Below are positions 23,051-50,753 of a stretch of DNA of 51,340 bases, piece after piece. This stretch comes from Candidatus Zixiibacteriota bacterium (GTDB lineage: Bacteria > Zixibacteria > MSB-5A5 > WJJR01): NCBI GenBank assembly GCA_016199865.1, contig JACQFV010000067.1, positions 1 to 51,340 on the forward strand, read 5' to 3'. Numbering within the stretch: position 1 is the stretch's first letter; each line of letters begins with the position of its first letter. Below the pieces are notes generated by a model. That model was not told the origin of the DNA, made no database searches, and saw only the letters and a list, made by a program, of their open reading frames with translations. Position numbers and translations under genes: made by a program.

Positions 23051-26000
23051 TTACTTCAACAGCGTCATCTTGCGGGTCGCCGTGAAATCAGCGGCCTGGA
23101 CACGGTAGAAGTAGACACCTGACGCCACATGCGTTCCGGCGTTGTCAGTGCCATCCCACGCGACTTGAGCGCGTCCGGCATCATGACCCGCAAAGGTCCG
23201 CACTGTCTGGCCGGCGATGTTGTAAATCGCCAGCGACCAATCCGTCTCCTGCTTCAAGTTGAAGGCGATAACCGTCCCCGCGTTGAACGGATTCGGATAG
23301 TTCTGCAACAGCGCATACTCCGTGGGCACAGCCGACTTGGCCGCGCTCGAGGACAGAAGGGCGCCGGAGGCATCCGACATTTGCACGTCGGCCAATTCGA
23401 TCGCGCCATCACCGGTCGTCGGGATGGTCAGGATCTCGTTGGCGCCGGCATTGACCCGGGCGCCTTTGTCCCAAGCATAGACCAACACGCGCAGTTCACC
23501 GTTCTCCGCATGGGACGCCATCCGCAAATTGGCGGCGGCCGGCGAGAGAACCGGTGTCCCGACGCCCATTCCAGAGTACCGGAAGACCAACAAGGCGCCG
23601 CCGAGCTCGACCGAGGAATTGGTCTGCACGTGGACGGTGTTGTTTTCAACCCGCATGTTCGCCGTGCCGCTGTTCAGGTAGGGCGACATCTTCGGATTGC
23701 CCGGATCGTTCGGGAAGGGCTGCGCGTCGCCGGTGATGACCCGGATCAGATAGATCAGGTCGGCCACCGTCAGCGGCACGCCGTCGTCGTTGACGTCGGA
23801 CGCGAGAATCTGGGACTCCCGATATCCACCCTGCGACTGCGGCAGCGTGAAGACGTCGGGACCATAGATGAAGTAGTTCGTGAACAACACCGCGTCACCG
23901 ACTTCGTTGGCGATGTTGTTCAGGTTGATGTCGCCGCGATCGTCATGCGGCGGAATGACGCAGATCCAGCCGTCGCACAGCGAGATGATGTCCCGGGCCA
24001 CGTGCTTGCGCGGGTCGATGCACGACTGATCCGAGCCGATCGGGATGAACAACGTGTCACCCGTCACGGAGGACAGCGTGTTGTCGCCGCAATCCAGCGT
24101 GCAGAAGGCCACGCGGAAACACTGGCCGATGAAGTTACGATCGCTGGAGACCAGGAACTTCAGCGCGATGATCTTGCCGTCCAGGTGGAAGTCCGCCGGC
24201 GCCGGGTGGATCGTTGAGCCATTGTTCAAGTCGGCAATGGCCACAACCCGGAGGTAGCCGGAGGGGCAGCCGCCCGTGCAGTTCGAATTGGCGCTGAACC
24301 GCCAGGTGAAGTATTCCCACTTCTTCAGGTTCCCCTCCGCGGTCGCGCCGAGGAAGGACATCCCGGACTTGTCGTAGCACAGAAGCAGGTCCAAACCACC
24401 CAACGGATAGCTGTTGCTAACCTTGACCCAGATCGTCGCCGTCTGGCCGCTCAGTACTTCCACGATGCTGTCGGTGCCAACTTCGTCGCCGACGCACAGC
24501 TTGTAGGACAGAACGGTGATGTCAAAGCAGCAGGTGTCCTTCTGTCCGCACTCGTCCGACCCGATGACGCAGGCGGTCCATACACCAGCATCGCACTCAT
24601 TCGCGGCAGAAGTCTGCCATGAGAAGTGGCCGGAATCATCGACCGTCGGAGCGTTGTCCGGACCGCAGGCCTGATGGCTGTCGGCGGTCTTGACAAAGCT
24701 CAACAGCGAGTAGTGGATCTTCCCGCCGTCGGCGTCTGTCCCGGTTGCCGTCCCCTTGATCAAGTCACCCAACAGTGCCAAAGGTATGGTCGGGCAGGTG
24801 ATCACGGGGGCCGGATTGACCACGGTCACGGTGAAGCAGCAGGTGTCGGCCTTTTCGCAGTCGAACACCCGCACGCAGATCGTGATCGGACCCTTGCCGA
24901 AATCGGCGCAATCCGGGTCAAACGTCAAGGTGCTGCCGCTGATCGTCGGGGCGTTTTGCGGCGCGGGAACGGCCGAAATCACCGTCCACGTCAACGGGCA
25001 CTTGCAATTGTCGTCCGTCGCGACCAGAGGCACGTTCGCATTCGCTGCATTCCAGTTGATCGTGATGTTGGCCGGATTGGTGCACACCGGCGCATTCTGG
25101 AACACGGTCACGTTGAACGTGCAGAGGACCGAATCGCAACCGTCGGAGGCGTAGAAAGAGATGACGTGTGTGCCGACGTCGGCGCACGTCGTGGCCCAGT
25201 TGTACACTCCGGCGGAAGTCACCGTGCCCGGCGATCCCGCAGCCAGTGAATAGCTGAACGGATTGCCGTCGGCATCGCTCGCATTCAACTGCTTGCCAAC
25301 CACTCCGGTCTGGAAATACACGGTCACGTCCGCGTTGGTGCCGCAAACCGGCGCGGTGTTGGTCACGGTCACAGTGAAGGTGCACTGAACCGACGCGCCG
25401 CACTGATCGGTGGCCCGGAAGGTCACCGTGTGTACGCCTTTGTCCTGGCAGGACGCGCAGTAGTTGAACTTTCCATCCAGGGAAACGGTCGCGCCATGCA
25501 GACCACCCGCGTTGGCCAGGGAATACGCCAACGGGTTGTCGCAGACGTCAGGATCCGAGGCGTTCAACTGCTTGTTCACGACGCACGCGGTGAAGTTACG
25601 TGATTCGTTGCTGTTCTGGCCACAAACCGGCGGTTTGTTTTCCAGCGGAAGCGTGCTTTTGAACCACTCGATGGTGTCCTTGCATGCACCGCAGTCGAAA
25701 GAGATGTATGCACCCGCTGGCGGGAAAAAGGCCGTGTCAATGACGATATCGCCTTGGCAAGTACTGGGGGTTTGGATCGTCAAGATCCAGAGAGCGGGAT
25801 AATTGCCTGGGGGCAGGCAACACCCGCTGAAATTCACAACACCCGTCGTCCCCGGAAAACCGCCCACGCCGGTCAAACAACCGGCCAGAGCAGCCGTCGG
25901 AGTCGCCGACAGAATCGTCGCTCCTCCGGAAATGGTCAGGGGTAAGCCCCAACCACCGATGGAACTCGTGGTGTTGAGAAAGATCGGCACCTGAATGGTC

Positions 26001-26134
26001 GCGCAGCGGGGTATCCCCTGGTTCTGCTGACCGTTCGGGTGACCGAGACCACCAGAATTGCTGGCAAAGGCGACACCGGATGAGAGAAGCAGGGCCAGAC
26101 CTACGCAGGCCAGTACTGTCAGTTTATGCTTCAT
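23051..26134 (-). CDS. 1027-aa secreted protein: signal peptide, about 4 Cys-rich Ig-like modules, cohesin-like module, dockerin-like module, T9SS C-terminal sorting domain
   Basis: Signal peptide 'MKHKLTVLACVGLALLLSSGVAFA'. Modules end in '..TFTVTVTNTAPVC', '..TFNVTVFQNAPVC', '..CFTVTVVNPAPVI'. Cohesin-like 'ATIWVKVSNSYPLGGLDLLLCYDKSGMSFLGA'. Dockerin-like 'GDINLNNIANEVGDAVLFTNYFIYG..SDVNDDGVPLTVADLIYLIRVITGD'. CTD 'LLQNYPNPFNAGTVIAF..SGVYFYRVQAADFTATRKMTLLK'. Confidence 0.88.
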   Translation of the reverse strand: MKHKLTVLACVGLALLLSSGVAFASNSGGLGHPNGQQNQGIPRCATIQVPIFLNTTSSIGGWGLPLTISGGATILSATPTAALAGCLTGVGGFPGTTGVVNFSGCCLPPGNYPALWILTIQTPSTCQGDIVIDTAFFPPAGAYISFDCGACKDTIEWFKSTLPLENKPPVCGQNSNESRNFTACVVNKQLNASDPDVCDNPLAYSLANAGGLHGATVSLDGKFNYCASCQDKGVHTVTFRATDQCGASVQCTFTVTVTNTAPVCGTNADVTVYFQTGVVGKQLNASDADGNPFSYSLAAGSPGTVTSAGVYNWATTCADVGTHVISFYASDGCDSVLCTFNVTVFQNAPVCTNPANITINWNAANANVPLVATDDNCKCPLTWTVISAVPAPQNAPTISGSTLTFDPDCADFGKGPITICVRVFDCEKADTCCFTVTVVNPAPVITCPTIPLALLGDLIKGTATGTDADGGKIHYSLLSFVKTADSHQACGPDNAPTVDDSGHFSWQTSAANECDAGVWTACVIGSDECGQKDTCCFDITVLSYKLCVGDEVGTDSIVEVLSGQTATIWVKVSNSYPLGGLDLLLCYDKSGMSFLGATAEGNLKKWEYFTWRFSANSNCTGGCPSGYLRVVAIADLNNGSTIHPAPADFHLDGKIIALKFLVSSDRNFIGQCFRVAFCTLDCGDNTLSSVTGDTLFIPIGSDQSCIDPRKHVARDIISLCDGWICVIPPHDDRGDINLNNIANEVGDAVLFTNYFIYGPDVFTLPQSQGGYRESQILASDVNDDGVPLTVADLIYLIRVITGDAQPFPNDPGNPKMSPYLNSGTANMRVENNTVHVQTNSSVELGGALLVFRYSGMGVGTPVLSPAAANLRMASHAENGELRVLVYAWDKGARVNAGANEILTIPTTGDGAIELADVQMSDASGALLSSSAAKSAVPTEYALLQNYPNPFNAGTVIAFNLKQETDWSLAIYNIAGQTVRTFAGHDAGRAQVAWDGTDNAGTHVASGVYFYRVQAADFTATRKMTLLK

Positions 26135-36701: not shown

Positions 36702-38227
36702 TGAAACGGCCGCTGCGCGTTTTGTACCTCAGTTCCGAAGTCGTGCCGTTTTCCAAGACCGGGGGATTGGCGGATGTCGCCGGGGCGCTCCCGGAGGCGC
36801 TGGCGCAACTGGGTTGCGAAATCCGAGTCCTCTCGCCTCACTATTCCGGCCAAAAGGGAGGCAAGCAACGCACCGTTTCGGCCACCACGGTGCCGATCAC
36901 AGTTCCGATCAACGGTCGGCCGCAATCACTGACTCTACAAACCCTGGCCGATGGCTCCAGCAATGTCCGGCATTACTTCGCCGAACACGCGGGGTACTTT
37001 TCTCGCGCCTCGCTCTACGTCGATCCGGCCACTGGGCGGGATTATCCCGACAACGATGAACGGTTCGTCTTCCTGTCGCGCGGCGCTCTCGAATGGATGC
37101 GCGTCGATCGCTGGCGTCCGGATATCATCCATCTGAACGATTGGCAGACGGCGACCACGGCGGCATTTCTGGCATTGCTGTACCGTGATGATCCGGCGCT
37201 GGTACAGGCGCGCACCATACTGACCGTGCACAATCTGGCCTACCAGGGACTCTTCGACGCTGAACGATTCGAAGTCTTGGGCCTCGATCCCGGGCTGTTT
37301 TTTCCCACTTCCCCATTCGAGTTTTGGGGCAAGATCGGTTTCCTCAAGACCGGACTTGTCTACGCGGACAAGTTGAACACGGTCTCGCCGACTTATGCGC
37401 GGGAGATTCAATCTTCGCCCGAATTCGGCTGCGGACTGGAAGGATTGCTGCGCGAACGCAGAGCCGACCTCTCCGGCATTCTGAACGGCATCGATGATGC
37501 GGTCTGGAATCCCGCGACTGATTCTTTGATTCCGCAGACATTCACGCCGGCCGCCCCCGCGGGCAAAAAGGCCAACAAACGCTATCTACTCGAACTCTGT
37601 GGCTTCGCAAAATCGCGTCAGGACCGTCCCCTGATCGGAATGATCTCGCGTCTTGCCGACCAGAAGGGGTTCGACCTCGTTGCCGAAGCCGCCCAACGCA
37701 TTTTCGCGCTCGACGTCAATCTCGTCCTGCTGGGCACCGGCGATCCTGCCTTCCATACCCTGTTCGAAGAGTGGAACAAGCGCTTCGCCACGCAATTCCG
37801 GGCCTTCCTGACCTTTGACAACAAACTGGCGCATCAGATCGAGGCCGGCTCCGACATGTTTCTCATGCCGTCACGCTATGAGCCCTGTGGCTTGAACCAG
37901 ATGTACAGTCTGCGCTATGGCACCGTGCCGATCGTCCGCGCCACAGGCGGTCTGGCCGACACCGTGTTCGATGCCGATGACGACGCCAAGCGCGGCAATG
38001 GATTTGTCTTCGTCGACTACACAGCCGAGGCGATGCTGGCGGCTGTCCGCCGTGCCGTGACCGCTTATGGCGCGCCCAAACGGTGGGCCACGCTGATGAA
38101 ACGCGGCATGGAAACGGATTTTTCCTGGCGGCGTTCGGCGCAGGACTACATCGCTCTCTACGAGGCCGCGCTCGCGGCTCCTCCTAAAGAACGCTCGTCC
38201 CAGCCCGCCGTTGCCGTGGGGCGTTGA
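36701..38227 (+). CDS. glgA: Glycogen/starch synthase
   Basis: 'EVVPFSKTGGLADVAGALP', 'HLNDWQT', 'NGIDDAVWNP', 'SRLADQKG', 'MPSRYEPCGLNQMYSLRYGT'. The start overlaps the galT stop by 1 nt. Confidence 0.95.
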   Translation: MKRPLRVLYLSSEVVPFSKTGGLADVAGALPEALAQLGCEIRVLSPHYSGQKGGKQRTVSATTVPITVPINGRPQSLTLQTLADGSSNVRHYFAEHAGYFSRASLYVDPATGRDYPDNDERFVFLSRGALEWMRVDRWRPDIIHLNDWQTATTAAFLALLYRDDPALVQARTILTVHNLAYQGLFDAERFEVLGLDPGLFFPTSPFEFWGKIGFLKTGLVYADKLNTVSPTYAREIQSSPEFGCGLEGLLRERRADLSGILNGIDDAVWNPATDSLIPQTFTPAAPAGKKANKRYLLELCGFAKSRQDRPLIGMISRLADQKGFDLVAEAAQRIFALDVNLVLLGTGDPAFHTLFEEWNKRFATQFRAFLTFDNKLAHQIEAGSDMFLMPSRYEPCGLNQMYSLRYGTVPIVRATGGLADTVFDADDDAKRGNGFVFVDYTAEAMLAAVRRAVTAYGAPKRWATLMKRGMETDFSWRRSAQDYIALYEAALAAPPKERSSQPAVAVGR

Positions 38228-38343: not shown

Positions 38344-38832
38344 GTGGTCGACACCTCCGGATACATCTATCTGACCCCCGAAGGGCACAGCAAGATGAAG
38401 TCCGAACTCAAGCGGCTGAAGACCGTCGAGCGGCCGCAGATCGTCTCGGAAATCTCCCGCGCCCGCGACTTGGGCGATCTCTCCGAGAACGCCGAATACC
38501 ACGCCGCCAAGGAAAAGCAGGTCATCTTGGAGCGCAAAATCTCCGAACTGGAGGACAAACTCCGGCGCATCAAGATGATTCCGGAGGGGAACATCGATGG
38601 CGGCCGCGCCTACTTGTTGTCCTTCGTCACGGTGAAGGACTTGAAGTCCGGGGAGCAGATTCGCTACCAACTGGTCTCCCCGGAGGAAGCCGATTTCGAT
38701 CTGGACCGCATTTCCATTCACGCGCCGGTCGGGCAGGGTCTCTTGGGCAAGGCCAAGGGCGATCGCGTCAGCGTCAAAGTCCCCGCCGGCGAACTGCAGT
38801 ACGAAATCCTCGACGTGCAGCGGCCAAAGTAG
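38344..38832 (+). CDS. greA: Transcription elongation factor GreA
   Basis: 'LTPEGHSKMKSELKRLK..RPQIVSEISRARDLGDLSENAEYHAAKEKQ' and 'ISIHAPVGQGLLGKAKGDRVSVKVPAG'. GTG start. Confidence 0.92.
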   Translation: MVDTSGYIYLTPEGHSKMKSELKRLKTVERPQIVSEISRARDLGDLSENAEYHAAKEKQVILERKISELEDKLRRIKMIPEGNIDGGRAYLLSFVTVKDLKSGEQIRYQLVSPEEADFDLDRISIHAPVGQGLLGKAKGDRVSVKVPAGELQYEILDVQRPK

Positions 38833-38968: not shown

Positions 38969-39232
38969 ATGGCCGCCGTCAAAGTCGGCGTCAGCCGGCA
39001 GATCGTCATCCCCAAGAAAGTCTATGATCAGCTCCGGCTTTCCTCAGGCGATTACCTCGAAGTCGAGCTCAAAGGGGATCGCCTCATTCTCACCCCCAAG
39101 GAACTCGTCGATAAGCGTCTGGCCGAAAGTCTCGAGGATCTGAAAAAGGGGCGTATCCACGGGCCCTTCGCGACGGCCAAGGAGACCGTTCGCGCGCTTC
39201 GCGGTAGGCGTCCCAACAAGAGAACCAAGTGA
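38969..39232 (+). CDS. AbrB/MazE/SpoVT-family antitoxin
   Basis: 'KVGVSRQIVIPKKVYDQLRLSSGDYLEVELKGDRLILTP' (swapped-hairpin motif). aaggag RBS. TATAAT at 38922-38927. Confidence 0.8.
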   Translation: MAAVKVGVSRQIVIPKKVYDQLRLSSGDYLEVELKGDRLILTPKELVDKRLAESLEDLKKGRIHGPFATAKETVRALRGRRPNKRTK

Positions 39233-39587: not shown

Positions 39588-42500
39588 CTACTTCAGCAGC
39601 GTCATCTTCTTGATCTGGATGCCCTGCTGGGTCTGCACGCGGTACAGGTAGATTCCCGACGCCAGCTGTACGCCGTTGTCGTTGCGGCCGTCCCACCGGA
39701 CTTCGACCCAGCCGCCTGCGGTTTCGCCCTCGCTGTACCAGATGCGCCGTCCGGTGATGTCGTAGATCGACACCGAGTATGGACCGGGCTGATCGAGACC
39801 GAAACGGATGACCGTGCCGGCGTTGAACGGGTTCGGGTAGTTTTGCTGCAGGTTGAATCCGGTCGGCAACGGCGCTCCGTGGGCGAGAGTCGCCGGCAGC
39901 ACCTCGCCGTCGCCGGTGGACAGATCATAGGTCGAGACTGAAGCCCGCGCCGCATTGGTCATGGGAATCGTCACGACCGTGTGTCGTCCTGCCGGAATCT
40001 GCCGGGCCGTGCGGCTGTAGACGAGCACGCGCAGCTGGTTTCCTTCCAGATTTGACCTGATCTCCATGTCCGCCACGTCCGGTGTCAAGGCCGGTGTGCC
40101 GATTTCAGCGTCGCTGGGGACGTCGATCACAAAATGCGCGCCTCCGACCGCGACATCCGATTGCCACCCCAGTTGCAGGGCGCCGTCGGCAACGGTCGCC
40201 ACCACGTGGGCCGGATCGAGCGCCAAAATCTTCGGATTGCCACCCGGCAGCAGGGGCTGCTGATCGCCGGTGATGATCCGGATGAGGAAGATCAAGTCGG
40301 CCACCGTCAGCACGATCCCGTCGTCGTTCACGTCCGACGCCAAGAGTTGCGCCGCCTTGTAGACCGGGTTCCAGACCTTGTCACCGTAGATGAAGTAGTT
40401 GGTATAGAGCACGGCGTCGCCGACTTCATTGGCAATGCCGTTCAGATTCACATCGCCGCGATCGTCGGGCGGCTCCTGGATGCAAATCTGCCCATCGGTA
40501 AAGCAGATGGCTGATATTGGGTTGACCTTCGCTTGGGATTGGCAGGTGTCGTAGCGGACGCCGACGCCGATGAATGTCGTGTCGCCCGTCTTGTCCGAAA
40601 TCGTGTTGTCGCCGCAATCCAGCCAGCAGAAACGGATCGGGAGGCACTGCCCGATGAAGTTGCGGTCCGTCGTCACGAGGAACTTGATGGTGGCAATCAC
40701 GCCGTCGGGCAAAAACTCCTCCGCCGGGGGATGCGACGAACCATTGTTCATGTCGGCGATGCCGATGATGCGGATCAATCCCGAGGGACAGCCGATACCG
40801 CAATCGCCGCGCGTGCCGAGCCGGTAGGTGAAGTACTCCCAGTTCGGGATGACGCTGCCCTTCTGAGCGGTGACGAAGTTGACTCCGGTCGGGTCAAAGC
40901 AGAGCAGGAAATCATATCCGCCCAACAGGGCATTGGTGTGGTCAATTAGGATCGGCACAGTCACTGTTTCGCCGTTTAAGACGTCGAGCTGCGTGCCGCC
41001 GTTGATCGACACCCGGATCCGGCATTCGCAATCCTGGCCGGGGACGACGATGATCACCACGGTGTCGGCGTCGGTGAACTGACAGGAGTCGGTCACGTTC
41101 GCCATGATGGTGAAGAATCCGGTTCCCGTCGGAGTGAAGCAGATCATGTTGGCCGCGGTGTCAATCGTGGCGCCAGCCGGTCCCGAGGCCAACGATTCCG
41201 TCAGTTTGCTGAACCCGTTCGGATCGGACACCGTGTACGTGACGCATATCTGCGCCGGCGTGCACTGCTGGACCGTCTGATCGGGACCCAGCACGATCTT
41301 CGGCGGGCTGTTTAGCGTGACGGTGTAAACGACCGTGTCGCGATCTTCGGACCCGCATGAATCGGTCACCTTGGCGATGATCGTGTAGGTTCCCGACGAC
41401 CCGGGCGTGAAGCAAACCCTGCGGTTTAGCGTGTCGAGGAAGGCCGCGGGCGGACCGGACAGGAGCATGTCGGTCAATTTGCCGGGGCCGTTGGGATCGG
41501 AGACGACATACGGCGCGCAGATCTGCGACGGGGTGCAGAGCGTGACCGATTGATCGGAACCGAAGTCGATTGTCGGCGGGCCATTGTAGGTGACATGCAC
41601 GACGGCCGTGTCCATGTCAAAGGCGCCGCAGGCATCCGTGACGATCACGACAATCGTGAAGTTGCCGCTCGTGCCCGGCGTGAAGCAGACCTTGTTTCCG
41701 GCCGTGTCGATCGCGGTGCCGGCCGGGCCGGAAAGCAAATGCTCACCCAATTTGCCGAGGCCGTTCGGATCGGAAACCGTGTACGGCACGCAGATCGGCG
41801 CCGTGGCGCAGAGGAAGACAGTCTTGTCGACACCCAGATCGATCACGGGCGGACTGTTGAGCGTGACGGTGACGACGATGGTGTCATAGTCGACAAAGTA
41901 GCACGGCTCTTCTTCCCTGGCGATGATCGTGTAACTGCCCGACGCCGTCGGCGTGAAGCAGATCTTGTTGCCCGCCGTGTCGATCGTCGCGCTCGGCGGC
42001 CCGGAGACCAACGTTTCGATGATACCCGCCAGACCGTCGGGATCGGTTACGGTATACGGCACGCAGATCGGCGTGAGCGTGCACTGGAAGACAGACGTGT
42101 CGCGGCCGAAATTGATCTGCGCCAGTTTGTTGAACTTGTAGGTGACGTGGAATGACCCCTCGCAAAATGCCCCGCAGGTGTCGGTGCAGCGGATTGTGAC
42201 GGTGAACGACGTGTCGACGCCTGAGGGCGTGTAACACCAGGCGCCCTGGGCCAGGGCACCCGGACCGCTGATCAGAGCGCAAGTCGGCTTATGATCGCCG
42301 GTGGCGGATACAGCCAGACAGACCTGTGCCGGTGCGCACCGGTTATAGGTCTGGTCGGTTGGCAGGTAGCAGACCGGCGGCACGGCGGGTATCACCGTGA
42401 CGACGATCGTGTCGAGATCGAACGCGCCGCAGGAATCGGTCACTTTGGCGATGATCGTGTAGTTGCCGGTTACCGTCGGCGTGAAGCAGATCTTATTGGC

Positions 42501-43853
42501 CACCGTGTCGATGGAAGCTCCGGCCGGCCCCGAGAACAAAGATTCAGTCAATTTCCGCGGCCCATTGGGGTCGGAGACTGAGTAACCGACGCACACGGGC
42601 ACGGGTGGATTGCAGAGGGTGACCGAGGTATCGTTGCCCAAGACGATCAGCGGCGGGTCATTCATGTCAAAGGCGACGTGGAATGTCCCCTCACACGACG
42701 TGCTGCAGGCATCGGTACAGCGGATCGTCACATCCACACTCTGTTCGCCGGTCGGGGTATAGCACCAATTTCCGTTGGTCACTGCCCCTGGGCCGCCCAC
42801 AACTTTACAGATCACCGGCGGATTCAAACTGGTCGCCGTGACCGGCAGGCAGGCCTGGCTGGGCGCGCACTGGAAGATCGTCGTGTCGCGCGGCAGGATG
42901 CACACGGGCGGCTGCTTGGACTTGAACGTCGTCGTGAATTCGATGGAACACGAGTCGCCGCAGGCGTCTTTGCAGCGGATGATGACATGGATCGTCTCGC
43001 CGCCCAGGGGAGTGTAGCGGTACAGGTTGCCGCTGAGAATGCCTGGGCCGTACAAGACGCAGCTGGTCGCGCCCCCCTCCGGATCGACGTCGGTGAACGG
43101 CAGGATGAATTCGGCATTGGCGCAGATACTGGGCGCGACGGGCAGGAAATTGCAGACCGGCGGCTGGTTCAACGTCTTGGTCACGATCACCGTGTCCTTG
43201 TCCACCACGCCGCAGGAGTCGATCACCGTGACGATGATCGTGTCGGGCGCGCCGGTCGTGGCGGTGTAGCAGACCGTGTCGTTCGCCAGGGTCCCTTTGT
43301 TCACCGACTTGGTCTTGATGTTGTGGTCCGGATCGCTGAACCCGAAGGGTCCGACGCAGATCGACGCCGGCACACGGCAGAGCCAGACAGTCGTGTCGGG
43401 CGGGCCGGTCACGTTCGGCGGGTCATTGACGTCCACGGTCACCTTGACCGTGTCGCAGACCTTGACGCCGCATGAGTCGACGTCGCAGTCGATCAGCGAG
43501 TACGTTCCCGAGGTGTCGGGGACAAAACAGATGCTGGCGCCGTGAATGAAGCCAAACGGCACCTGCACCAGCACGATATTGTGGTCCAGATCGCCCTCGA
43601 TCCACGGCCCCCGGCAGATCGTGTCGCCGAGGCAGATGCGGACCGATGTATCGGCCGGCCCAATCACAAAGGGCGGCCGGTTGAAGTTGACGCAGACGGA
43701 GATCGTGTCGTAATCGCCGGCGCCGCAGGCGTCGGTCACTTTGGCGATGATCGTCCGGCACCCGGTCGCCGTCGGCGTGAAACAGACTTTGTTGTTGGCC
43801 GTGTCGATGGTCACGCCCGTGCCGGAGATCAACGATTCCGTGAGTTTCCCCAA
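39588..43853 (-). CDS. C-terminal 1421-aa part of a split giant surface protein: 11 Cys-rich ~95-aa modules, cohesin-like, dockerin-like, T9SS sorting domain; no signal peptide
   Basis: The listed TTG start is the Leu of the module motif 'SDPNGLGKLTE'. Cohesin-like 'VTVPILIDHTNALLGGYDFLLCFDPTGVNFVTA'. Dockerin-like 'GDVNLNGIANEVGDAVLYTNYFIYG..SDVNDDGIVLTVADLIFLIRIITGD'. CTD 'LQQNYPNPFNAGTVIRF..SGIYLYRVQTQQGIQIKKMTLLK'. Confidence 0.85.
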   Translation of the reverse strand: MGKLTESLISGTGVTIDTANNKVCFTPTATGCRTIIAKVTDACGAGDYDTISVCVNFNRPPFVIGPADTSVRICLGDTICRGPWIEGDLDHNIVLVQVPFGFIHGASICFVPDTSGTYSLIDCDVDSCGVKVCDTVKVTVDVNDPPNVTGPPDTTVWLCRVPASICVGPFGFSDPDHNIKTKSVNKGTLANDTVCYTATTGAPDTIIVTVIDSCGVVDKDTVIVTKTLNQPPVCNFLPVAPSICANAEFILPFTDVDPEGGATSCVLYGPGILSGNLYRYTPLGGETIHVIIRCKDACGDSCSIEFTTTFKSKQPPVCILPRDTTIFQCAPSQACLPVTATSLNPPVICKVVGGPGAVTNGNWCYTPTGEQSVDVTIRCTDACSTSCEGTFHVAFDMNDPPLIVLGNDTSVTLCNPPVPVCVGYSVSDPNGPRKLTESLFSGPAGASIDTVANKICFTPTVTGNYTIIAKVTDSCGAFDLDTIVVTVIPAVPPVCYLPTDQTYNRCAPAQVCLAVSATGDHKPTCALISGPGALAQGAWCYTPSGVDTSFTVTIRCTDTCGAFCEGSFHVTYKFNKLAQINFGRDTSVFQCTLTPICVPYTVTDPDGLAGIIETLVSGPPSATIDTAGNKICFTPTASGSYTIIAREEEPCYFVDYDTIVVTVTLNSPPVIDLGVDKTVFLCATAPICVPYTVSDPNGLGKLGEHLLSGPAGTAIDTAGNKVCFTPGTSGNFTIVVIVTDACGAFDMDTAVVHVTYNGPPTIDFGSDQSVTLCTPSQICAPYVVSDPNGPGKLTDMLLSGPPAAFLDTLNRRVCFTPGSSGTYTIIAKVTDSCGSEDRDTVVYTVTLNSPPKIVLGPDQTVQQCTPAQICVTYTVSDPNGFSKLTESLASGPAGATIDTAANMICFTPTGTGFFTIMANVTDSCQFTDADTVVIIVVPGQDCECRIRVSINGGTQLDVLNGETVTVPILIDHTNALLGGYDFLLCFDPTGVNFVTAQKGSVIPNWEYFTYRLGTRGDCGIGCPSGLIRIIGIADMNNGSSHPPAEEFLPDGVIATIKFLVTTDRNFIGQCLPIRFCWLDCGDNTISDKTGDTTFIGVGVRYDTCQSQAKVNPISAICFTDGQICIQEPPDDRGDVNLNGIANEVGDAVLYTNYFIYGDKVWNPVYKAAQLLASDVNDDGIVLTVADLIFLIRIITGDQQPLLPGGNPKILALDPAHVVATVADGALQLGWQSDVAVGGAHFVIDVPSDAEIGTPALTPDVADMEIRSNLEGNQLRVLVYSRTARQIPAGRHTVVTIPMTNAARASVSTYDLSTGDGEVLPATLAHGAPLPTGFNLQQNYPNPFNAGTVIRFGLDQPGPYSVSIYDITGRRIWYSEGETAGGWVEVRWDGRNDNGVQLASGIYLYRVQTQQGIQIKKMTLLK

Positions 43854-45745
43854 ACCGTTGGGATCAGAGAACGACGACCGTATCCAGATCAGAGGCGCCG
43901 CACCCGTTGGTCACCTTGGCGATGATCGTGTTGCACCCGGACCCAGCGGGTGTAAAGCAGATTTTGTTGGCGACCGTGTCGATACTGGCGTTCGCCGGTC
44001 CGGAGACGAGCGCTTCGGTCAGGGGTTGCGATCCGGACACGGTGTAGGTGACGCAAATCGCCGACGCCGCGCATTGGATCGCGTTTTGATCGGGCCCCAG
44101 ATCGATCGAAGGCGGCGTGCCTTGATTAATCGTGTAGACGATCGTATCGCGGTCTTCCGCGCCGCATGAATCCGTCACTTTGGCGATGATCGTGTAGGCG
44201 CCCGACCCCGACGGCGTGAAGCAGACCTTGTTGTTGAGAGTGTCGAGGAAGGCCGCGGGCGGACCGGACAACAGCAGTTCGCTCAGATGGCTCAGCCCGT
44301 TCGGATCGGAAATCGTATAGGACGCGCAGATCTGAACTGGCGTGCATTGCGTGAGGGTCGAATCGTGGCCGAAGGCGATGTCCGGCGGGGCGTTGAGCGT
44401 CACGCAAACGACGGTCGTGTCGTAGTCGTTCACCCCGCACGAATCGATCGCTTTGGCGATGATTGTCTGGCAACCGGAACCAGTGGGCGTAAAGCAAATC
44501 TTGTTGTTGAGCGTGTCAATGAACGCCCCCGATGGACCCGCGATCAGAAACTCGGACAGTTTGCCAAGACCGTTCGGATCGGAAACCGTGTACGGGCAGC
44601 AAATCTGTCCCGCCGTGCATTGGGCAATGTTCTTGTCGGCGCCCAGATCAATCGTCGGCGGGCCGTTGACTGTGACCGTGAAGTTGATCGTGTCGCGATC
44701 TTCGGCGCCGCAGGAATCGCTGACCTTGGCGATGATCGTGTAGATGCCGGAGATCGTCGGCGTAAAGCAGACCTTGTTATTGAGCGTGTCGAGGCGGGCC
44801 GCGGGCGGACCGGACAAAAGCATTTCGGTCAAATGGCCCAGCTCGTTCGGATCGGAAATCGTGTAAGGCGCGCAAATCTGAGACGGCGTGCACTGGACAA
44901 TCGTCGAATCATTGCCGAAGGCGATGTCCGGCGGTCCGTTCAAGGTCACATGGACGACGGACGTGTCGTAATCGGCCTGGTCGCACGGATCGATCACCCG
45001 AACGATGATCGAGTAATCACCTGATGCGGTCGGCGTGAAGCAGACCTTGTTGCCCGCGGTGTCGATAGACGCATTCGGTGGACCGGAAATCAGCGATTCG
45101 ATCAGTCCGTCCAGGCCATCGGGATCGGCGACGCTGTAGAAACAGCAGATCGGCGCCTGAGTGCATTGGGTGATCGTCTTGTCGGGCCCCAGATCGATCG
45201 TCGGCGGGTGATTGAGCAAGGCGTTGATTACGATGGTGTCGGAGTCGACGGCCCCGCAGTGATCGGTGACTGTCACGATCACCGTGTCCTTGCCCGAGAC
45301 TGTTGGGGTGAAGCAGACTTTATTGAGCGCCGTGTCGATGGTCGCACCCGGCGGGCCCCAGACCAGATACTCGGTCAGCCCGGCCAAACCGTCGGGATCG
45401 GAGACCGTGTACGGCAGACAGATCGGCACAGACGAGCACAGTACGAACGTCGTGTCGTTGCCCAGCGCGATATCCGGCTTCCGATTCAAGGTCACCGTCA
45501 CGTACATTGTGTCGCAACCCTGCAGGCCGCAGGCGTCGACCGCGCAGCAGATGATCTGGTAGACACCGGCGGTGTCCACCACGAAGCAAATCCTGCCGGA
45601 GGCGGGCATGAACCCGAACGGGATGAAGAAACTCATAATGTTGCCGTCGGGATCGGTCTCACTCCACGGGAACGTGCAGATCGTGTCTCCCTCACAGGCG
45701 GAGATCGCGAAATCCGGCGGCGCGAAGGTCACCGGTGGCCGGTTG
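41030..45745 (-). repeat. Array of 18 tandem coding modules (~95 aa each) spanning both ORFs of the split gene
   Basis: I counted the recurring core '..NK[VI]CFTPT.SG.YTIIAKVTDSCGA.D.DT.VV.VTLN.PP.I..G.D....QC....IC.PYTVSDPNG..KL.E.L.SGP': 7 in ORF 43864-46632 and 11 in ORF 39588-43853. An exact 31-nt identity links 41432-41462 and 44240-44270. Confidence 0.85.
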
Positions 45746-46632
45746 CCGCAGCACGGAGTATTGGCTTCGAATTTCTGGCACAGATTCGCCGACGAAAGGT
45801 TGGTGCACCGCTTGTTGGCATCCCCGTCGTTCGGGTCACAGGCGTTGTTGCCGGGGAGGGGGCAGGGGTCGGGCGGATCCTCGCCGCGGAATTTCGCCCG
45901 CAGCGTATAGGTGCCTGGCGCCAGAGGGATGGCGAGACGGTCGCAGGCCACTCCGAACGCGTCCGTGATCGCCGTGTCTTCTGCTACCTGACCGACGTTC
46001 GCACCACAATTGCCGGGATTGACGAAGAAGATGACTTCCCGTCCCGGCAGCGGCTGATCGGGATCGACATTGCACGATTGCGTCAGTGTGACGCAGACGT
46101 CGATCGAGTCGCCGGCGCTGCCGCACAGCGTGTCGCGGAGTGCCGAACTGAGCGTCAAATTCGTGTTGGCGCTCGTGAAGCCGGCCAGCCCCCACTCGCC
46201 GGATGCTGTGCCGGTGGCGGCAACCACGAGCGAGTCGTTGATGTACCCGGCCGGAATCACCCATTGTGTCGTGATGGCGCCATTCGGTGCGGCTACGGTC
46301 CACGCGTCCAGATTCTGACTGCCGGACTTGAGATTGGACTGGAGCGCAATGCGCAGCTTGACCGATTCACTGGGGGCGAACCCCGAGCCGGTGATCTGCA
46401 CCACTTGGCCCGGCGCATATCTGGCCTTGTCGGTCGCCAAGTTCGCAGTGCTGACGGGTGGATTCCCATCCACCGGATTTCCCGATCGGATGGCCGGGCG
46501 CCCCGGTGCCGCCCCCGCCGGCAGCGCGTACAATAGCGACGTCAAGAACAGGGCAACCGCACCGGCGGCATGGATTGACCAGCCCATCCACCGTTTGTTC
46601 CCCTTGGTAACGGCGACGTTCATGGAGATCAT
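43864..46632 (-). CDS. N-terminal 922-aa part of the split giant surface protein: signal peptide, ~300-aa N-terminal region, 7 Cys-rich modules; no sorting domain
   Basis: Signal/TM segment 'WMGWSIHAAGAVALFLTSLLYALPAGAAPG'. It ends abruptly inside a module ('..CGASDLDTVVVL*'). Confidence 0.85.
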   Translation of the reverse strand: MISMNVAVTKGNKRWMGWSIHAAGAVALFLTSLLYALPAGAAPGRPAIRSGNPVDGNPPVSTANLATDKARYAPGQVVQITGSGFAPSESVKLRIALQSNLKSGSQNLDAWTVAAPNGAITTQWVIPAGYINDSLVVAATGTASGEWGLAGFTSANTNLTLSSALRDTLCGSAGDSIDVCVTLTQSCNVDPDQPLPGREVIFFVNPGNCGANVGQVAEDTAITDAFGVACDRLAIPLAPGTYTLRAKFRGEDPPDPCPLPGNNACDPNDGDANKRCTNLSSANLCQKFEANTPCCGNRPPVTFAPPDFAISACEGDTICTFPWSETDPDGNIMSFFIPFGFMPASGRICFVVDTAGVYQIICCAVDACGLQGCDTMYVTVTLNRKPDIALGNDTTFVLCSSVPICLPYTVSDPDGLAGLTEYLVWGPPGATIDTALNKVCFTPTVSGKDTVIVTVTDHCGAVDSDTIVINALLNHPPTIDLGPDKTITQCTQAPICCFYSVADPDGLDGLIESLISGPPNASIDTAGNKVCFTPTASGDYSIIVRVIDPCDQADYDTSVVHVTLNGPPDIAFGNDSTIVQCTPSQICAPYTISDPNELGHLTEMLLSGPPAARLDTLNNKVCFTPTISGIYTIIAKVSDSCGAEDRDTINFTVTVNGPPTIDLGADKNIAQCTAGQICCPYTVSDPNGLGKLSEFLIAGPSGAFIDTLNNKICFTPTGSGCQTIIAKAIDSCGVNDYDTTVVCVTLNAPPDIAFGHDSTLTQCTPVQICASYTISDPNGLSHLSELLLSGPPAAFLDTLNNKVCFTPSGSGAYTIIAKVTDSCGAEDRDTIVYTINQGTPPSIDLGPDQNAIQCAASAICVTYTVSGSQPLTEALVSGPANASIDTVANKICFTPAGSGCNTIIAKVTNGCGASDLDTVVVL

Positions 46633-46975
46633 GCAGGCCTACCTCGTTTCACATCGTGGACGTTCACGCGGAGATCCTCACGCGTCTTCGTATCACCGCA
46701 CTCGTTCATCATGACGCCATGCTCCGTTGCAGACTTGGCGTCATCCTGACGCTATGCCATCCTTCAATTTGAAGAATGGACCGGCAAACCGTCCCGTTTG
46801 CCGTTATGGAAAACCCGTTGAAATTCCGCCTTGCGGGTACAATGGGACCCGTCGGGCCGACCTGCCCCGACGACTGCAAAAATACCTGTTTTTCGTTTCC
46901 TGTCAAGGAGTTATCCCCGGTTTCACAGAGCCGTAAACACCTGAATTCTTCCGCATTGTCAGCGATTCATCATTA

Positions 46976-47212
46976 TCACTTCAAAAGCAACATCTTGCGA
47001 CTGGCGGCGAATCCGCCCGCCTGAAGCCGGGCAAAATAGATTCCGCTTCCCAACGGCCCGCCATCGGCGTCATCTCCGTGCCACGATCTTCTTGGGACGC
47101 TCCCGCACCTTTCGCGAGGGGCGAGATTTGCGACTTGTCCAGCCGCCCTTTGAATGCAACCCGCGACGCGGGCCTTCCGACGGTTACCTGAGTTTGTCCT
47201 GAGCCAGGTCGT
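46976..47212 (-). pseudogene. Decayed remnant of a T9SS C-terminal sorting domain (no start codon, frame broken upstream)
   Basis: The minus-strand translation ends '..RRSWHGDDADGGPLGSGIYFARLQAGGFAASRKMLLLK*' (compare 'VRWDGRNDNGVQLASGIYLYRVQ..KKMTLLK'). This frame has an in-frame stop 78 codons upstream and no plausible initiator. Confidence 0.5.
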
Positions 47213-47669
47213 TCACGATTCGCCTGGCGACCAATCGTTCGGGGTACAGGGGTGGTGGGGAGGATTCTCCTTAATACTTTGATACTTGGGCGGTCAATCC
47301 GCTCAGGACACCTAATACTAACATGTAAGTGCCGAATTGTCAAGCACCATTCCGCCGGACCGCTCCCGTGAACAAAGTGCGCAACCGGCCGCAACAATCG
47401 GACTGGGGCCGGAGAGAGAACTCCACGGCCTCGTCCTTCCGAATCCACCAAGTGCTTTGATCCCATCACATTACTTCATGCCTCACTACGCACCACGCAC
47501 ACCCCTGGTGACCTAAAGTAATGCTTTAACGCAAACCCTGTACCGCCCCCAATTCACCGGCTCAACCGTTCAATGAATGACGATTTCTTCGCTGAGCTGT
47601 CCAAAAGTGAACTGATTCACATGCTAAATGCGACCTGACAGGCCTTCTTAACATACTCCAAGTCCATGT

Positions 47670-47683
47670 TATTCAATTGAATA
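47670..47683. promoter_or_regulatory. Perfect 14-bp palindrome TATTCAATTGAATA, 26 bp upstream of the sigma-54 -24 element (candidate regulator or IHF-type site)
   Basis: Read directly. It is A/T-rich within a GC-rich genome. Confidence 0.35.
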
Positions 47684-47709
47684 CGGAATCTCAAGCGCGT
47701 GCCGGCGGC

Positions 47710-47724
47710 TGGCACAGGCCTTGC
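47710..47724 (+). promoter_or_regulatory. Sigma-54 (-24/-12) promoter candidate TGGCAC-aggcc-TTGC
   Basis: It matches the TGGCAC-N5-TTGC consensus with correct GG-N10-GC spacing. It lies ~290 nt upstream of the HTH/kinase/NtrC genes, whose last member is a sigma-54 activator. Confidence 0.55.
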
Positions 47725-48016
47725 CGAATACAGGGTAACCAGCGGCGAGTCGTCCGCAAAAGATGTCGAAAATCGATGAGCGCCGTGGCGAAACGAGGGG
47801 CCAATTGGGTGAACAGGCCCGCATTGCTGGGCCCGCATCGACGCCTCCGGCGAACCCTTGGGGTCGGTGGCGTCAACGGATCAGGGCCGCGGCAAGAACC
47901 GCGGCCGGATTCCGACCGGAGCGGGACGGACGCATGAATAGCCGCCCGTGGCGATCTGACAATGAAACGATGTGCAGAATAACGAGGAATCCCAAACCGA
48001 ACACAGGGAGGAACAC

Positions 48017-48193
48017 ATGAATCGCAAAGAACGTCTGGAAATCGTGCGGCGCTACTGGTGGACCAACCGACAGATGCCCATGACGGAGATCGCCAGGTTG
48101 TCCGGCGTCTCCTTGCGGACGACCTACCGTGACGTCCACTCGGTCCTGTCGCGACCGATGAATTTTAGTGACTCGCTGTTGGCCAGGCAGTAG
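48017..48193 (+). CDS. Small (58-aa) helix-turn-helix protein
   Basis: The ATG at 48017 follows gggaggaa. 'MTEIARLSGVSLRTTYRDV' is a classic HTH. Confidence 0.6.
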   Translation: MNRKERLEIVRRYWWTNRQMPMTEIARLSGVSLRTTYRDVHSVLSRPMNFSDSLLARQ

Positions 48194-48337: not shown

Positions 48338-49336
48338 ATGCCATCCTCGATTCCCATGTCCTTGGACCCGGGTCTGCGACGCCGGTTGTATTTGTTGCGG
48401 CTCCTGATCGTGCTGCCGGTCCTCGTTGCCGGTGGCTTTGCGTATTGGTCGTACAACTTGTTTCCCACCCCCAGCGGAGCGTCCGGCGTCTGGGGTGAAT
48501 GGCGGCTTTTCACTCTGTTGTTGCTGATTGGCCTTGTCGCGGCGGGAGCCGGCGTGGTTATGTCCCTGGTCAATCGTGTCGTGCGCGCCCTGGAGGACCG
48601 TGAAGCCGACTTGTCCACCTCGCAGCAGCAGTTGATCACCGCCGATCGCCTGGCCTCGGTCGGGATGATGGCGGCCTCGGTGGCGCACGAGGTCAACAAT
48701 CCTCTGACGACGATCAAAGTGCTCATCCATACGGTCCACGAAAAGTTGCCCAAGACCGATCCCCGGCGGGCGGATCTGGACATCGTGCTGACGGAAATCG
48801 ACAAGATCAAGGTCCTGATCCTGCGTCTCCTGCAGTTTGCCCGTCCGCGCGAGCCGGAGTTTTCCGCGGTCGATTTGAACAGTATATTATCGCGCGTGGT
48901 CGACTTGATCCGTCCGCAGGCGCAGGCCCAGAAATTGTCGGTGCGCGAGCGCTACACGCCGCTGTCGCCGTTGCGCGCCGACGGCCCCCTTCTCGGGCAG
49001 GCCATTCTCAACATCCTGCTCAATGCCCTCGACGCCACGCCCGCGGGCGGCACGATCCGGGTCTCGACCGACGGTGGCTCAGACGGCCTGATCCACGCCA
49101 CGATCCACAACACCGGTGACGGGCTGGCCGCGGGGTTGGAGGAGAGGGTCTTCGACCCATTTTTTACGACCAAGGCCGCCGGGACCGGGTTGGGATTGTC
49201 GATCGGCCGCATGATTGTCGACAAACACGCTGGGACCATCCGCGCGGTCGGACATGGCGCCAATGGCACCAGTTTCGAAATCTCACTCCCTTCCCAACCG
49301 GGTGACACTGGCGATGCCGCGCATCCTCATCGTTGA
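48338..49336 (+). CDS. Sensor histidine kinase (two TM helices with a short external loop, HisKA + HATPase_c)
   Basis: H-box 'SVAHEVNNPLTTI', N-box 'ILNILLNALDAT', G-boxes 'HNTGDGL' and 'GTGLGLSIGRMIV'. The start is uncertain (48338 or 48356; the listed 48209 is TTG). Confidence 0.88.
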   Translation: MPSSIPMSLDPGLRRRLYLLRLLIVLPVLVAGGFAYWSYNLFPTPSGASGVWGEWRLFTLLLLIGLVAAGAGVVMSLVNRVVRALEDREADLSTSQQQLITADRLASVGMMAASVAHEVNNPLTTIKVLIHTVHEKLPKTDPRRADLDIVLTEIDKIKVLILRLLQFARPREPEFSAVDLNSILSRVVDLIRPQAQAQKLSVRERYTPLSPLRADGPLLGQAILNILLNALDATPAGGTIRVSTDGGSDGLIHATIHNTGDGLAAGLEERVFDPFFTTKAAGTGLGLSIGRMIVDKHAGTIRAVGHGANGTSFEISLPSQPGDTGDAAHPHR

Positions 49337-50753
49337 CGATGACACCAATCTGCGCTTCGCGTTGAAGCGGATTCTCGCTTCCCGGGTCTACGACGTCGAC
49401 GAGGCCGGAACCGGGGAGGAGGCCCTGGCGATGATCGCCCGGCAGCCGTATGCCGTGGTCTTCCTCGATCTGCGCATGCCCGGCTTGTCTGGATTGGAAG
49501 TCTTGGATCGTCTCAGGAAGTTCGACAGCAAGGTCCCGGTGATCATCATGACCGCGTATGGCACCACCGACACCGCGATCGAGGCGGTCAAGCGCGGCGC
49601 GTATGATTTCATATTGAAACCCTTCGAAGTGGAAGACATCGAACGGCTGACCGAGCAGGCCGTGACGGCTTATCGGCTCATGACCCGCAGGGTCGATCTG
49701 CCCGCAGCCGACGATGCGCCGGCCGCGGCGGACAGCGATACACTGGTAGGACGATCGCGCGCGATGCAGGAGGTTTACAAGGAGATCGGCCGGGTGGCGA
49801 CTTCCGACGCGACCGTGCTGATCACCGGCCCCTCCGGCTCCGGCAAAGAACTGGTGGCGCGGGCGATCTATCATCATTCCCGCCGTTCCGACAAGCCCTT
49901 TCTGGCCGTCAACTGCGCCGCCATTCCCGAGGGGCTTCTGGAAAGCGATCTGTTCGGCCACGAGCGTGGCTCGTTCACCTCAGCCGAACACCGCCGTCTG
50001 GGGAAATTCGAGCGGGCCTCAGGCGGCACCTTGTTTCTCGACGAGATCGGCGACATGAGCGCGGTCACGCAGGCCAAGATTCTGCGCGTGCTGCAAAATG
50101 GCGTGATCGAACGCGTCGGCGGCGGCGAATCGATCCAGGTCGACGTGCGCATCATCGCCGCGACGCACCGCGACCTGCCGGCTCTGGTGCGGCAGGGGAC
50201 CTTCCGCGAGGATTTGTATTTCCGTCTTAATGTCTTCACCATCGCGCTGCCGTCTCTGGACCAGCGGCGTGAGGACATCCCGTTCTTGGCCCGCCACTTT
50301 GTCGAACGGGAAAGCCGCCGCACGGGGCACGGCCCGATCAACATCCTACCGGAGACACTGGAAAAACTCGCCGCCCACAATTGGCGCGGCAATGTCCGCG
50401 AATTGGAGAATGTCATCGAACGGGCTCTGATTGTTTCGACGGGCGCGACGTTGTTGCCCGAGTCCGTTCGTTTTGACGAATCCGGTTCACCCCCACCGGA
50501 GTCCGGCGACTCAGGCGACCAAGCAGCCCTGCTGGACACTCTGTTTACGCGCCTCGCAGCCCGGGCCGAACACGATCCCGCTGAGTCCATCCTCTCTGTA
50601 CTTGAGCACGAGATGCTGCTGCGCGCCCTCCGTTTCACCAAAGGGAATCAGGTCCACGCCGCCCGTTTGCTGGGCATCTCGCGGCAGACTCTCCGCAACC
50701 GTCTCGCCGACGAGGATTCCGGCGGCACGCCCCTGTCTGATGAGGGGATTTGA
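49314..50753 (+). CDS. Sigma-54-dependent response regulator (NtrC family: REC + AAA+ + Fis-type HTH)
   Basis: 'ILIVDDDTNLR..VFLDLRMPGLSG', Walker A 'GPSGSGKELVA', 'GSFTSA' at the GAFTGA position, 'FLDEIGDM', 'RVIAATHRDL', 'FREDLYFRLNV', and C-terminal 'GNQVHAARLLGISRQTLRNRL'. Confidence 0.93.
   Translation: MPRILIVDDDTNLRFALKRILASRVYDVDEAGTGEEALAMIARQPYAVVFLDLRMPGLSGLEVLDRLRKFDSKVPVIIMTAYGTTDTAIEAVKRGAYDFILKPFEVEDIERLTEQAVTAYRLMTRRVDLPAADDAPAAADSDTLVGRSRAMQEVYKEIGRVATSDATVLITGPSGSGKELVARAIYHHSRRSDKPFLAVNCAAIPEGLLESDLFGHERGSFTSAEHRRLGKFERASGGTLFLDEIGDMSAVTQAKILRVLQNGVIERVGGGESIQVDVRIIAATHRDLPALVRQGTFREDLYFRLNVFTIALPSLDQRREDIPFLARHFVERESRRTGHGPINILPETLEKLAAHNWRGNVRELENVIERALIVSTGATLLPESVRFDESGSPPPESGDSGDQAALLDTLFTRLAARAEHDPAESILSVLEHEMLLRALRFTKGNQVHAARLLGISRQTLRNRLADEDSGGTPLSDEGI

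Follow-up and report, generated by a model that had tools for sequence, protein, structure and literature searches.

A giant T9SS surface-protein gene of Zixibacteria split into two open reading frames inside its cadherin-like module array

Proteins that leave the cell by the type IX secretion system (T9SS) use a Sec signal to reach the periplasm and depend on a C-terminal domain for passage through the outer membrane and for anchoring. SprB of Flavobacterium johnsoniae, a giant repeat-rich adhesin with a type A C-terminal domain, is one such cargo. We describe here a gene of comparable design in Candidatus Zixiibacteriota bacterium, located on contig JACQFV010000067.1 of assembly GCA_016199865.1 (51,340 nt, analyzed over its whole length and called the window hereafter) and written there as two consecutive open reading frames (ORFs), ORF A and ORF B. 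Its likeness to the SprB-type adhesins entails a predicted N-terminal Sec signal, a long array of Ig-like or cadherin-like modules, a C-terminal TIGR04183 domain and a host of the FCB group (Fibrobacteres, Chlorobi and Bacteroidetes). There is no sequence orthology to SprB, and the window gene differs in carrying a cohesin-like and dockerin-like cassette ahead of the C-terminal domain. It differs further in that the copy in the window is split, with neither ORF holding both export signals.

The fold predicted for the 91-aa repeat module is closest in Foldseek to the cadherin-like modules of SraP from Staphylococcus aureus (4m02 and 4m00; TM-score 0.72 for 4m02, root-mean-square deviation 2.5 over 92 columns, 24-26% identity), with Rib and cadherin domains ranking next. 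SraP, however, belongs to the Gram-positive serine-rich-repeat adhesins and is anchored by a different system, and the window modules have four conserved cysteines. The cassette recalls cellulosomal modules such as the ScaB cohesin of Acetivibrio cellulolyticus (5nrk), in its predicted cohesin fold and in a dockerin-like duplicated calcium-loop motif. In contrast to the cellulosomal modules, the two belong to a single T9SS cargo protein from a non-cellulosomal phylum, and the likeness is one of sequence and predicted fold. In the literature library searched, no paper was found that links Zixibacteria with T9SS, cohesin or dockerin.

Two open reading frames and the break between them

Sequence comparisons strongly support the conclusion that both ORFs derive from one ancestral gene, ORF A being its 5' part and ORF B its 3' part, and they establish the exact breakpoint together with the size and content of the missing piece. 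The elements of the junction are the following.

43864-46632, minus strand: ORF A, 922 aa, 5' half of the ancestral gene
39588-43853, minus strand: ORF B, 1421 aa, 3' half of the ancestral gene
43864-43872, minus strand: breakpoint; GTT at 43870-43872 is the last in-register codon of ORF A, and TCT at 43866-43868 (the S of SDPNG) is the first in-register codon of the B frame
43854-43868, minus strand: SDPNG codons in the B frame, module coding sequence left outside both annotated ORFs

ORF A ends in ...CGASDLDTVVVL, that is, in DTVVVL followed by a TGA stop at 43864-43866. ORF B is called from a TTG at 43851-43853, 10 nt beyond that stop. This TTG lies inside the module motif SDPNGLGKLTE, directly after its SDPNG. 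The frame of ORF B is open 5' of the TTG back to a TGA at 43911-43913 and reads ...IRSSFSDPNG, and the TCT-GAT of SDPNG in this frame overlaps the TGA of ORF A. The offset from the A to the B frame is +1, with a single orphan C at 43869 between the GTT of the former and the TCT of the latter. No other stop interrupts the 922 codons of ORF A or the 1421 of ORF B, and the contig contains zero Ns. In the NCBI annotation ORF A is HY304_03450 (P0001), a "hypothetical protein" of 919 aa from an ATG at 46623, and ORF B is P0002, a "T9SS type A sorting domain-containing protein" of 1421 aa. Each is recorded from NCBI only, on one 51,340-nt contig apiece.

The module period is 91 aa (273 nt) on both sides of the junction, and the array is laid out as follows.

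43870-45744, minus strand: the seven cadherin-like/Big_9 modules of ORF A, one divergent and six regular (module profile, Pfam, AlphaFold2 model and Foldseek)
43870-44142, minus strand: last module of ORF A, which stops at position 94 of the 100 in the module profile
43680-43853, minus strand: truncated first module of ORF B (residues 1-58), covering profile positions 42-99, without strands A-B' and two conserved cysteines
41043-43697, minus strand: the remaining modules of ORF B (module profile)

We searched ORF A, ORF B and three orthologues with a profile hidden Markov model (HMM) of the module. More than 50 matches begin at HMM positions 1-10, and the only exception in an orthologue begins at 23 (P0075). 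The one other exception, the first module of ORF B, begins at 42, or at 35 once the in-frame codons 5' of the called TTG are added, and this addition raises its score from 67.5 to 81.7 bits. The CFTP anchors, found at residues 440, 531, 622, 713, 804 and 892 of ORF A and at 24, 456, 632, 723, 814 and 905 of ORF B, are 59 aa apart over the junction, compared to the usual 91. Pairwise alignment of the junction with intact two-module stretches of ORF A, ORF B, P0068 and P0065 opened a single gap, of exactly 32 aa every time. Given this gap and the frame offset, 95 nt are missing (or 95 + 273n). Pfam Big_9 (PF17963) was matched in ORF A with 33.8 bits against a cut-off of 23.6, and related Ig-like families were matched as well.

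We modeled one 100-residue module with AlphaFold2 from an alignment of 40 modules. The model, with a predicted local distance difference test (pLDDT) score of 91.6, is one complete beta-sandwich from "PP.I" to "DT.VV.V", in which the SDPNG loop sits between the fourth and fifth strands. The part lost at the junction corresponds to the strands at 12-14, 19-23, 29-32 and 34-36. At the lesion one domain loses the tail of its final strand, and the domain that follows loses strands A-B', with which two of the four conserved cysteines disappear. Among the regular modules, the two beside the break are the most degenerate. In the module at 43870-44142 the SDPNG motif has become SGSQP with a 3-aa deletion, the near-invariant D82 is replaced by N, and the HMM score is 108 bits versus 131-150 in its neighbors; the module at 43680-43853 has lost the invariant P52, with a 1-aa deletion. 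This degeneration fits a region already under relaxed constraint.

We searched the protein database with a fused query of 2,348 aa (ORF A, SDPNG and ORF B), and all protein-search matches fell within about 0.55-1.75 times the query length. The fused query retrieved the single polypeptides P0068 (2101 aa, from GCA_035559435.1), P0070 (2091 aa) and P0075 (2157 aa), all of which unite the N-terminal domain of ORF A with the C-terminal cassette of ORF B. By BLASTP, residues 65-921 of ORF A align with 70-911 of P0068 (42% identity) and residues 16-921 with 1-901 of P0070, while residues 4-1421 of ORF B align with 690-2101 of P0068 (48% identity); P0070 and P0075 gave alignments equivalent to those of P0068. 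The alignments are thus collinear, ORF A corresponding to the N-terminal 900 residues of the orthologues and ORF B, from residue 3 or 4 to 1421, to the stretch from 679 or 690 to their end, at 38-48% identity. Three extra modules in the window gene account for an overlap of about 220 residues and for about 274 residues of difference in length, and the same number follows from the module HMM matches. The order of strong and weak modules 3' of the junction is that of P0068 after its module at 647-745. These orthologues therefore resemble the window gene in N-terminal domain, module order, C-terminal cassette and flanking genes, and differ from it in being uninterrupted, whereas the window gene exceeds them by three modules and carries the 95-nt deletion. 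Their identity to the window gene is only 38-48%, compared to 59-72% for the flanking genes.

The same fused query also retrieved P0065 and P0066 (2,682 and 2,686 aa) and an intact paralogue of 2,491 aa, P0072 (HY304_02535), from the same metagenome-assembled genome (MAG). P0065 and P0066 had the best scores, but their N-terminus is of the DUF4114 type, and we regard them as family members only and not as positional orthologues. ORF A alone, or a 517-aa junction query, returned only matches at no more than 50% identity and shorter than about 1.75 times the query; the family size of 1,400-1,600 aa that these queries had suggested was corrected by the fused query. P0008, which lacks a signal peptide, was considered as a second split gene and set aside, as it is simply cut by a contig end.

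At the P0068 locus (L003) the genes for GreA, GlgA, GalT, a nucleoside triphosphate (NTP) transferase and a cation diffusion facilitator (CDF) transporter lie directly downstream of the gene. At the P0075 locus (L002) small ORFs, a cupin gene, a histidine kinase gene and a sigma54 response regulator gene lie upstream and divergent from it. With tblastn these flanking genes were found at the corresponding window positions at 53-72% identity.

38350-38823: GreA (72% identity)
36713-38173: GlgA (64%), with GalT (66%), the NTP transferase and the CDF transporter next in order
48017-48157: small helix-turn-helix gene (67-70%)
48590-49291: histidine kinase (59%)
49314-50750: sigma54 regulator (68%)

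The cupin gene of the P0075 locus had no tblastn match in the window. As judged from gene order, ORF A and ORF B fill the slot of one gene, and synteny is unbroken over the junction.

Could the contig instead join two paralogous genes, by a fusion deletion between tandem paralogues or by chimeric assembly, so that A and B were never one gene? Full-length members of 1417-1609 aa exist (P0007, P0010, P0011, P0015 and P0019), which makes ORF B alone the size of a complete gene, and the MAG does have paralogues (P0072 and the gene at window 23051-26134). The short members, however, bear a different, DUF4114-type N-terminus, and the proteins that combine the N-terminal domain of ORF A with both syntenic flanks are single collinear genes of 2091-2157 aa. 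The continuous synteny over the junction also argues against a chimera of distant loci. We consider a joining of two paralogues very improbable.

The original prediction, which made the 922-aa and the 1421-aa ORF halves of a single gene, is thus borne out by collinear single-polypeptide orthologues, the syntenic slot, the module HMM and the structural model, and the orthologues in synteny are intact single ORFs that show no two-gene boundary. Its reading of the junction holds in every sequence statement: the TTG is the Leu of SDPNGLGKLTE, SDPNG is readable upstream over the TGA of ORF A, and the offset is +1. The absent linker of about 33 residues that it proposed measures exactly 32 aa in the alignments, with the CFTP spacing of 59 versus 91. 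Its placement of the break at a module junction has to be amended, as ORF A ends 5-6 residues before the end of a domain and ORF B begins about 34 residues into the next.

Domains and export signals

The domains outside the module array are listed below.

46510-46632, minus strand: predicted Sec signal peptide, ORF A residues 1 to about 41, with basic KGNKR, hydrophobic AAGAVALFLTSLLYAL and then AGA-AP (from hydropathy)
45745-46509, minus strand: N-terminal non-repeat domain, ORF A residues 42-296, common to P0068, P0070, P0075 and the same-MAG paralogue P0072
40671-40973, minus strand: cohesin-like beta-sandwich, ORF B residues about 961-1061 (Foldseek; Pfam below cut-off)
40263-40466, minus strand: dockerin-like duplicated calcium-loop motif, ORF B residues 1130-1197 (motif read by eye)
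39603-39839, minus strand: T9SS type A C-terminal sorting domain, ORF B residues 1339-1417 (TIGR04183, 42.7 bits against a cut-off of 23)

The Kyte-Doolittle maximum of ORF A is 2.0, at residues 23-37 after KGNKR, and the orthologues carry equivalent signal-like N-terminal segments. ORF B has no hydrophobic N-terminus, its first 60 residues peaking at 1.0. The sorting domain of ORF B was additionally matched by Pfam FlgD_ig (32.3 bits) and Por_Secre_tail (26.6 bits) and by the C-terminal domain of PorU (6za2_A); ORF A has no T9SS C-terminal sorting domain. A Sec signal and a T9SS C-terminal domain are found on the same polypeptide only in the restored A+B, and in neither ORF alone. This agrees with the earlier claims that the signal peptide is confined to the upstream ORF (2.0 versus 1.0 on the Kyte-Doolittle scale) and that one half could not be anchored, for want of a sorting domain, and the other not exported, for want of a signal-like N-terminus. 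Because neither ORF holds both export signals, the locus as written is read as a pseudogene, and presumably neither half is functional.

The cassette ahead of the sorting domain had been described as cohesin and dockerin. Foldseek with ORF B residues of about 946-1090 returned cohesins as all of its top 19 matches (5nrk_A, E 2.7e-7, target-normalized TM-score 0.69), whereas Pfam Cohesin (PF00963) reached 19.4 bits on ORF B, under the cut-off of 24.1. The predicted fold supports the cohesin assignment, and Pfam does not. The AlphaFold2 model of the cassette (ORF B residues 937-1336) is partly usable, at a mean pLDDT of 62.5, with about 66-88 in the first beta-domain and less than 50 over model residues 191-275; confidence is low across the dockerin-like stretch. 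That stretch has D.N.NG and D.N.DG motifs and a weak profile match to 3ul4_B (E 0.015), and Pfam dockerin (PF00404) had no match in ORF B. Of the earlier description, the sorting domain (by TIGR04183) and the cohesin (by fold, below the Pfam cut-off) are retained, and the dockerin in ORF B is a weak assignment from motifs and a profile match.

A functional arrangement of two genes would have ORF A exported as a soluble or periplasmic protein and ORF B made from its TTG, for example by termination-reinitiation. Both ORFs are long and intact, stop and TTG are just 10 nt apart, and NCBI annotates two genes. ORF B, however, begins inside a beta-sandwich, minus four strands and two conserved cysteines, and from what is generally known of T9SS its lack of a signal peptide puts the C-terminal domain out of reach of the secretion system. 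No Shine-Dalgarno-like sequence was found 5' of the TTG, though several genes of the contig have one, and no ATG occurs within the first 120 codons of ORF B. No promoter-like or terminator-like site was found in 43500-44500. With the syntenic orthologues being single ORFs as well, there is little to recommend two working genes, and we give the arrangement only a slight chance.

We also considered a programmed +1 frameshift at CUC-UGA that would join A to B in the manner of prfB (RF2), giving a junction-spanning product ...DTVVVLDPNGLGK. The window site shares with prfB a +1 offset at an in-frame UGA; the direction fits, and a +1 shift at the UGA continues as ...VVVL-DPNGLGKL. Unlike prfB, the site has no slippery CUU-U, and the shift from CUC to UCU gives no re-pairing. 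The upstream sequence, GTCGTCGTT, holds no Shine-Dalgarno-like stimulator, the product would still contain a truncated domain, 32 residues short, and the site is not conserved, the orthologues having a continuous module there. The original prediction had ranked recoding last, and on the sequence of the site we reject it as having practically no chance of being correct.

Origin of the break

The reading that we favor, and hold to be probable, is a real deletion in an ordinary broken gene, with no new mechanism. The ancestral product would have been a surface protein exported by T9SS and about 2,379 residues long (about 7.1 kb, in keeping with the gene of about 7 kb proposed at the outset). Its order would have been Sec signal peptide, N-terminal domain, about 17 cadherin-like modules, cohesin-like module, dockerin-like segment, beta-sandwich and type A sorting domain. 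An out-of-register deletion of 95 nt would have cut off the last few residues of one module, taken strands A-B from the module behind it and introduced a +1 frameshift, after which ORF A would stop at the TGA 6 nt past the breakpoint. The rest of the gene would persist as an ORF that the gene caller begins at the first in-frame TTG. ORF A might still cross the inner membrane, and would lack the C-terminal domain for T9SS export and anchoring. ORF B would keep the sorting domain and, without signal peptide, Shine-Dalgarno or ATG, would be cytoplasmic if made at all. That the deletion was present in the DNA of the sampled population, and did not arise merely in the assembly, appears probable to us.

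The main competitor is an assembly or consensus artefact, in which the gene is intact and the gap of 95 nt (or 95 + 273n) comes from the assembler, from gap closing or polishing, or from a minority path through the array. A mis-join by k-mer or overlap needs a shared word, and the two sequences brought together here have no more than about 5 nt in common; no exact repeat of at least 14 nt touches 43830-43900, and exact repeats within the 7-kb gene do not exceed 31 nt. Collapse of repeats would yield an in-register chimeric module and not the joining of module position ~94 to ~35 with a +1 shift, and the modules are only 50-83% identical in DNA. Repeat collapse is therefore disfavored because the join is out of register and no exact repeat lies at the junction; the contig is also without Ns. 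The degeneration of the two regular modules beside the break likewise counts in favor of a real deletion over a collapse. The collection records P0075 in 47 blocks, contigs of more than 1 Mb among them, so assembly of intact genes of this kind is feasible.

Several points nonetheless weigh against a real deletion. The MAG contig is a single source, and no independent copy confirms the junction in the collections searched: a junction 30-mer and a degenerate motif 250 nt downstream had zero matches in JGI metagenome contigs, and the degenerate motif had zero in the GTDB representative genomes. Exact look-ups of the contigs that encode ORF A, ORF B (P0002) and P0072 found none on record. The evidence for the junction therefore comes from one MAG contig. 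Both halves are otherwise fully open and free of stops, which means that the break is recent if real and that the genome is intact if not. Many relatives in the family end at contig edges, the homologues P0003, P0004, P0005 and P0008 being cut there, and assemblers evidently have difficulty with genes of this type. On balance an artefact is possible, if rather unlikely.

The original prediction had listed both of these origins. Of its inter-module recombination deletion, the deletion and the pseudogene are kept, and homologous recombination is not, the join running out of register from ~94 to ~35 with no repeat of at least 14 nt. Its collapse of the array by the assembler persists as the artefact just weighed, at lower likelihood than was implied, given module identities of 50-83% and a longest shared word of 31 nt.

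A real deletion could also be more than decay. The deletion may be one allele of an adhesin that is switched off or shortened by intragenic deletions in its module array, as irreversible surface variation under phage or predator pressure, and the half with the signal peptide might go on being produced, as a fragment that stays in the periplasm or is released. We think such a role improbable.

Neighboring genes and the wider family

Two further large genes for surface proteins lie on the contig. On the minus strand of the window, an ORF of 1539 aa at 13407-18026 ends in Pfam Dockerin_1 (25.2 bits against a cut-off of 22.9), and a protein of 1027 aa at 23051-26134 combines Big_9/Cadherin_4 with a T9SS C-terminal domain. 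P0072 (2491 aa), on another contig of the same MAG, has the N-terminal domain of ORF A, and a dockerin-like repeat ends this protein instead of a sorting domain. The dockerins and the predicted cohesin fold of ORF B hint at a cohesin-dockerin assembly on T9SS-anchored scaffolds in Zixibacteria.

The gene is preceded by about 1.4 kb of apparently non-coding DNA (46633-48016), as spacers of 1.2-1.4 kb precede the orthologues at the P0068 and P0075 loci. Three short conserved patches in the window spacer are collinear with that of the P0068 locus. One of the patches, at about 46889-46915, reads TTGACA-N16-TATTTTTG and is promoter-like, its -10 element resembling the Bacteroidetes-type TAnnTTTG motif. 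An Rfam scan of the whole window gave no match. Between GreA and the 3' end of ORF B, an 87-aa ORF on the plus strand (38969-39232) resembles antitoxins of the MazE/AbrB type (PF04014, 39.1 bits); it has no counterpart at that position in the P0068 locus and no obvious toxin partner adjoins it.

The split gene bears on no open mechanistic question, and its significance lies in annotation and in the family. Searches with the two halves of this giant gene did not turn up the intact orthologues, all longer than 2,000 aa, and only the fused query found them. HY304_03450 and its neighbor are best annotated together, as a single disrupted gene whose product would be a T9SS surface protein of about 2,380 residues. 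The family to which it belongs is a large, uncharacterized group in Zixibacteria, with cadherin-like repeats and a cohesin-/dockerin-like cassette ahead of a T9SS sorting domain.

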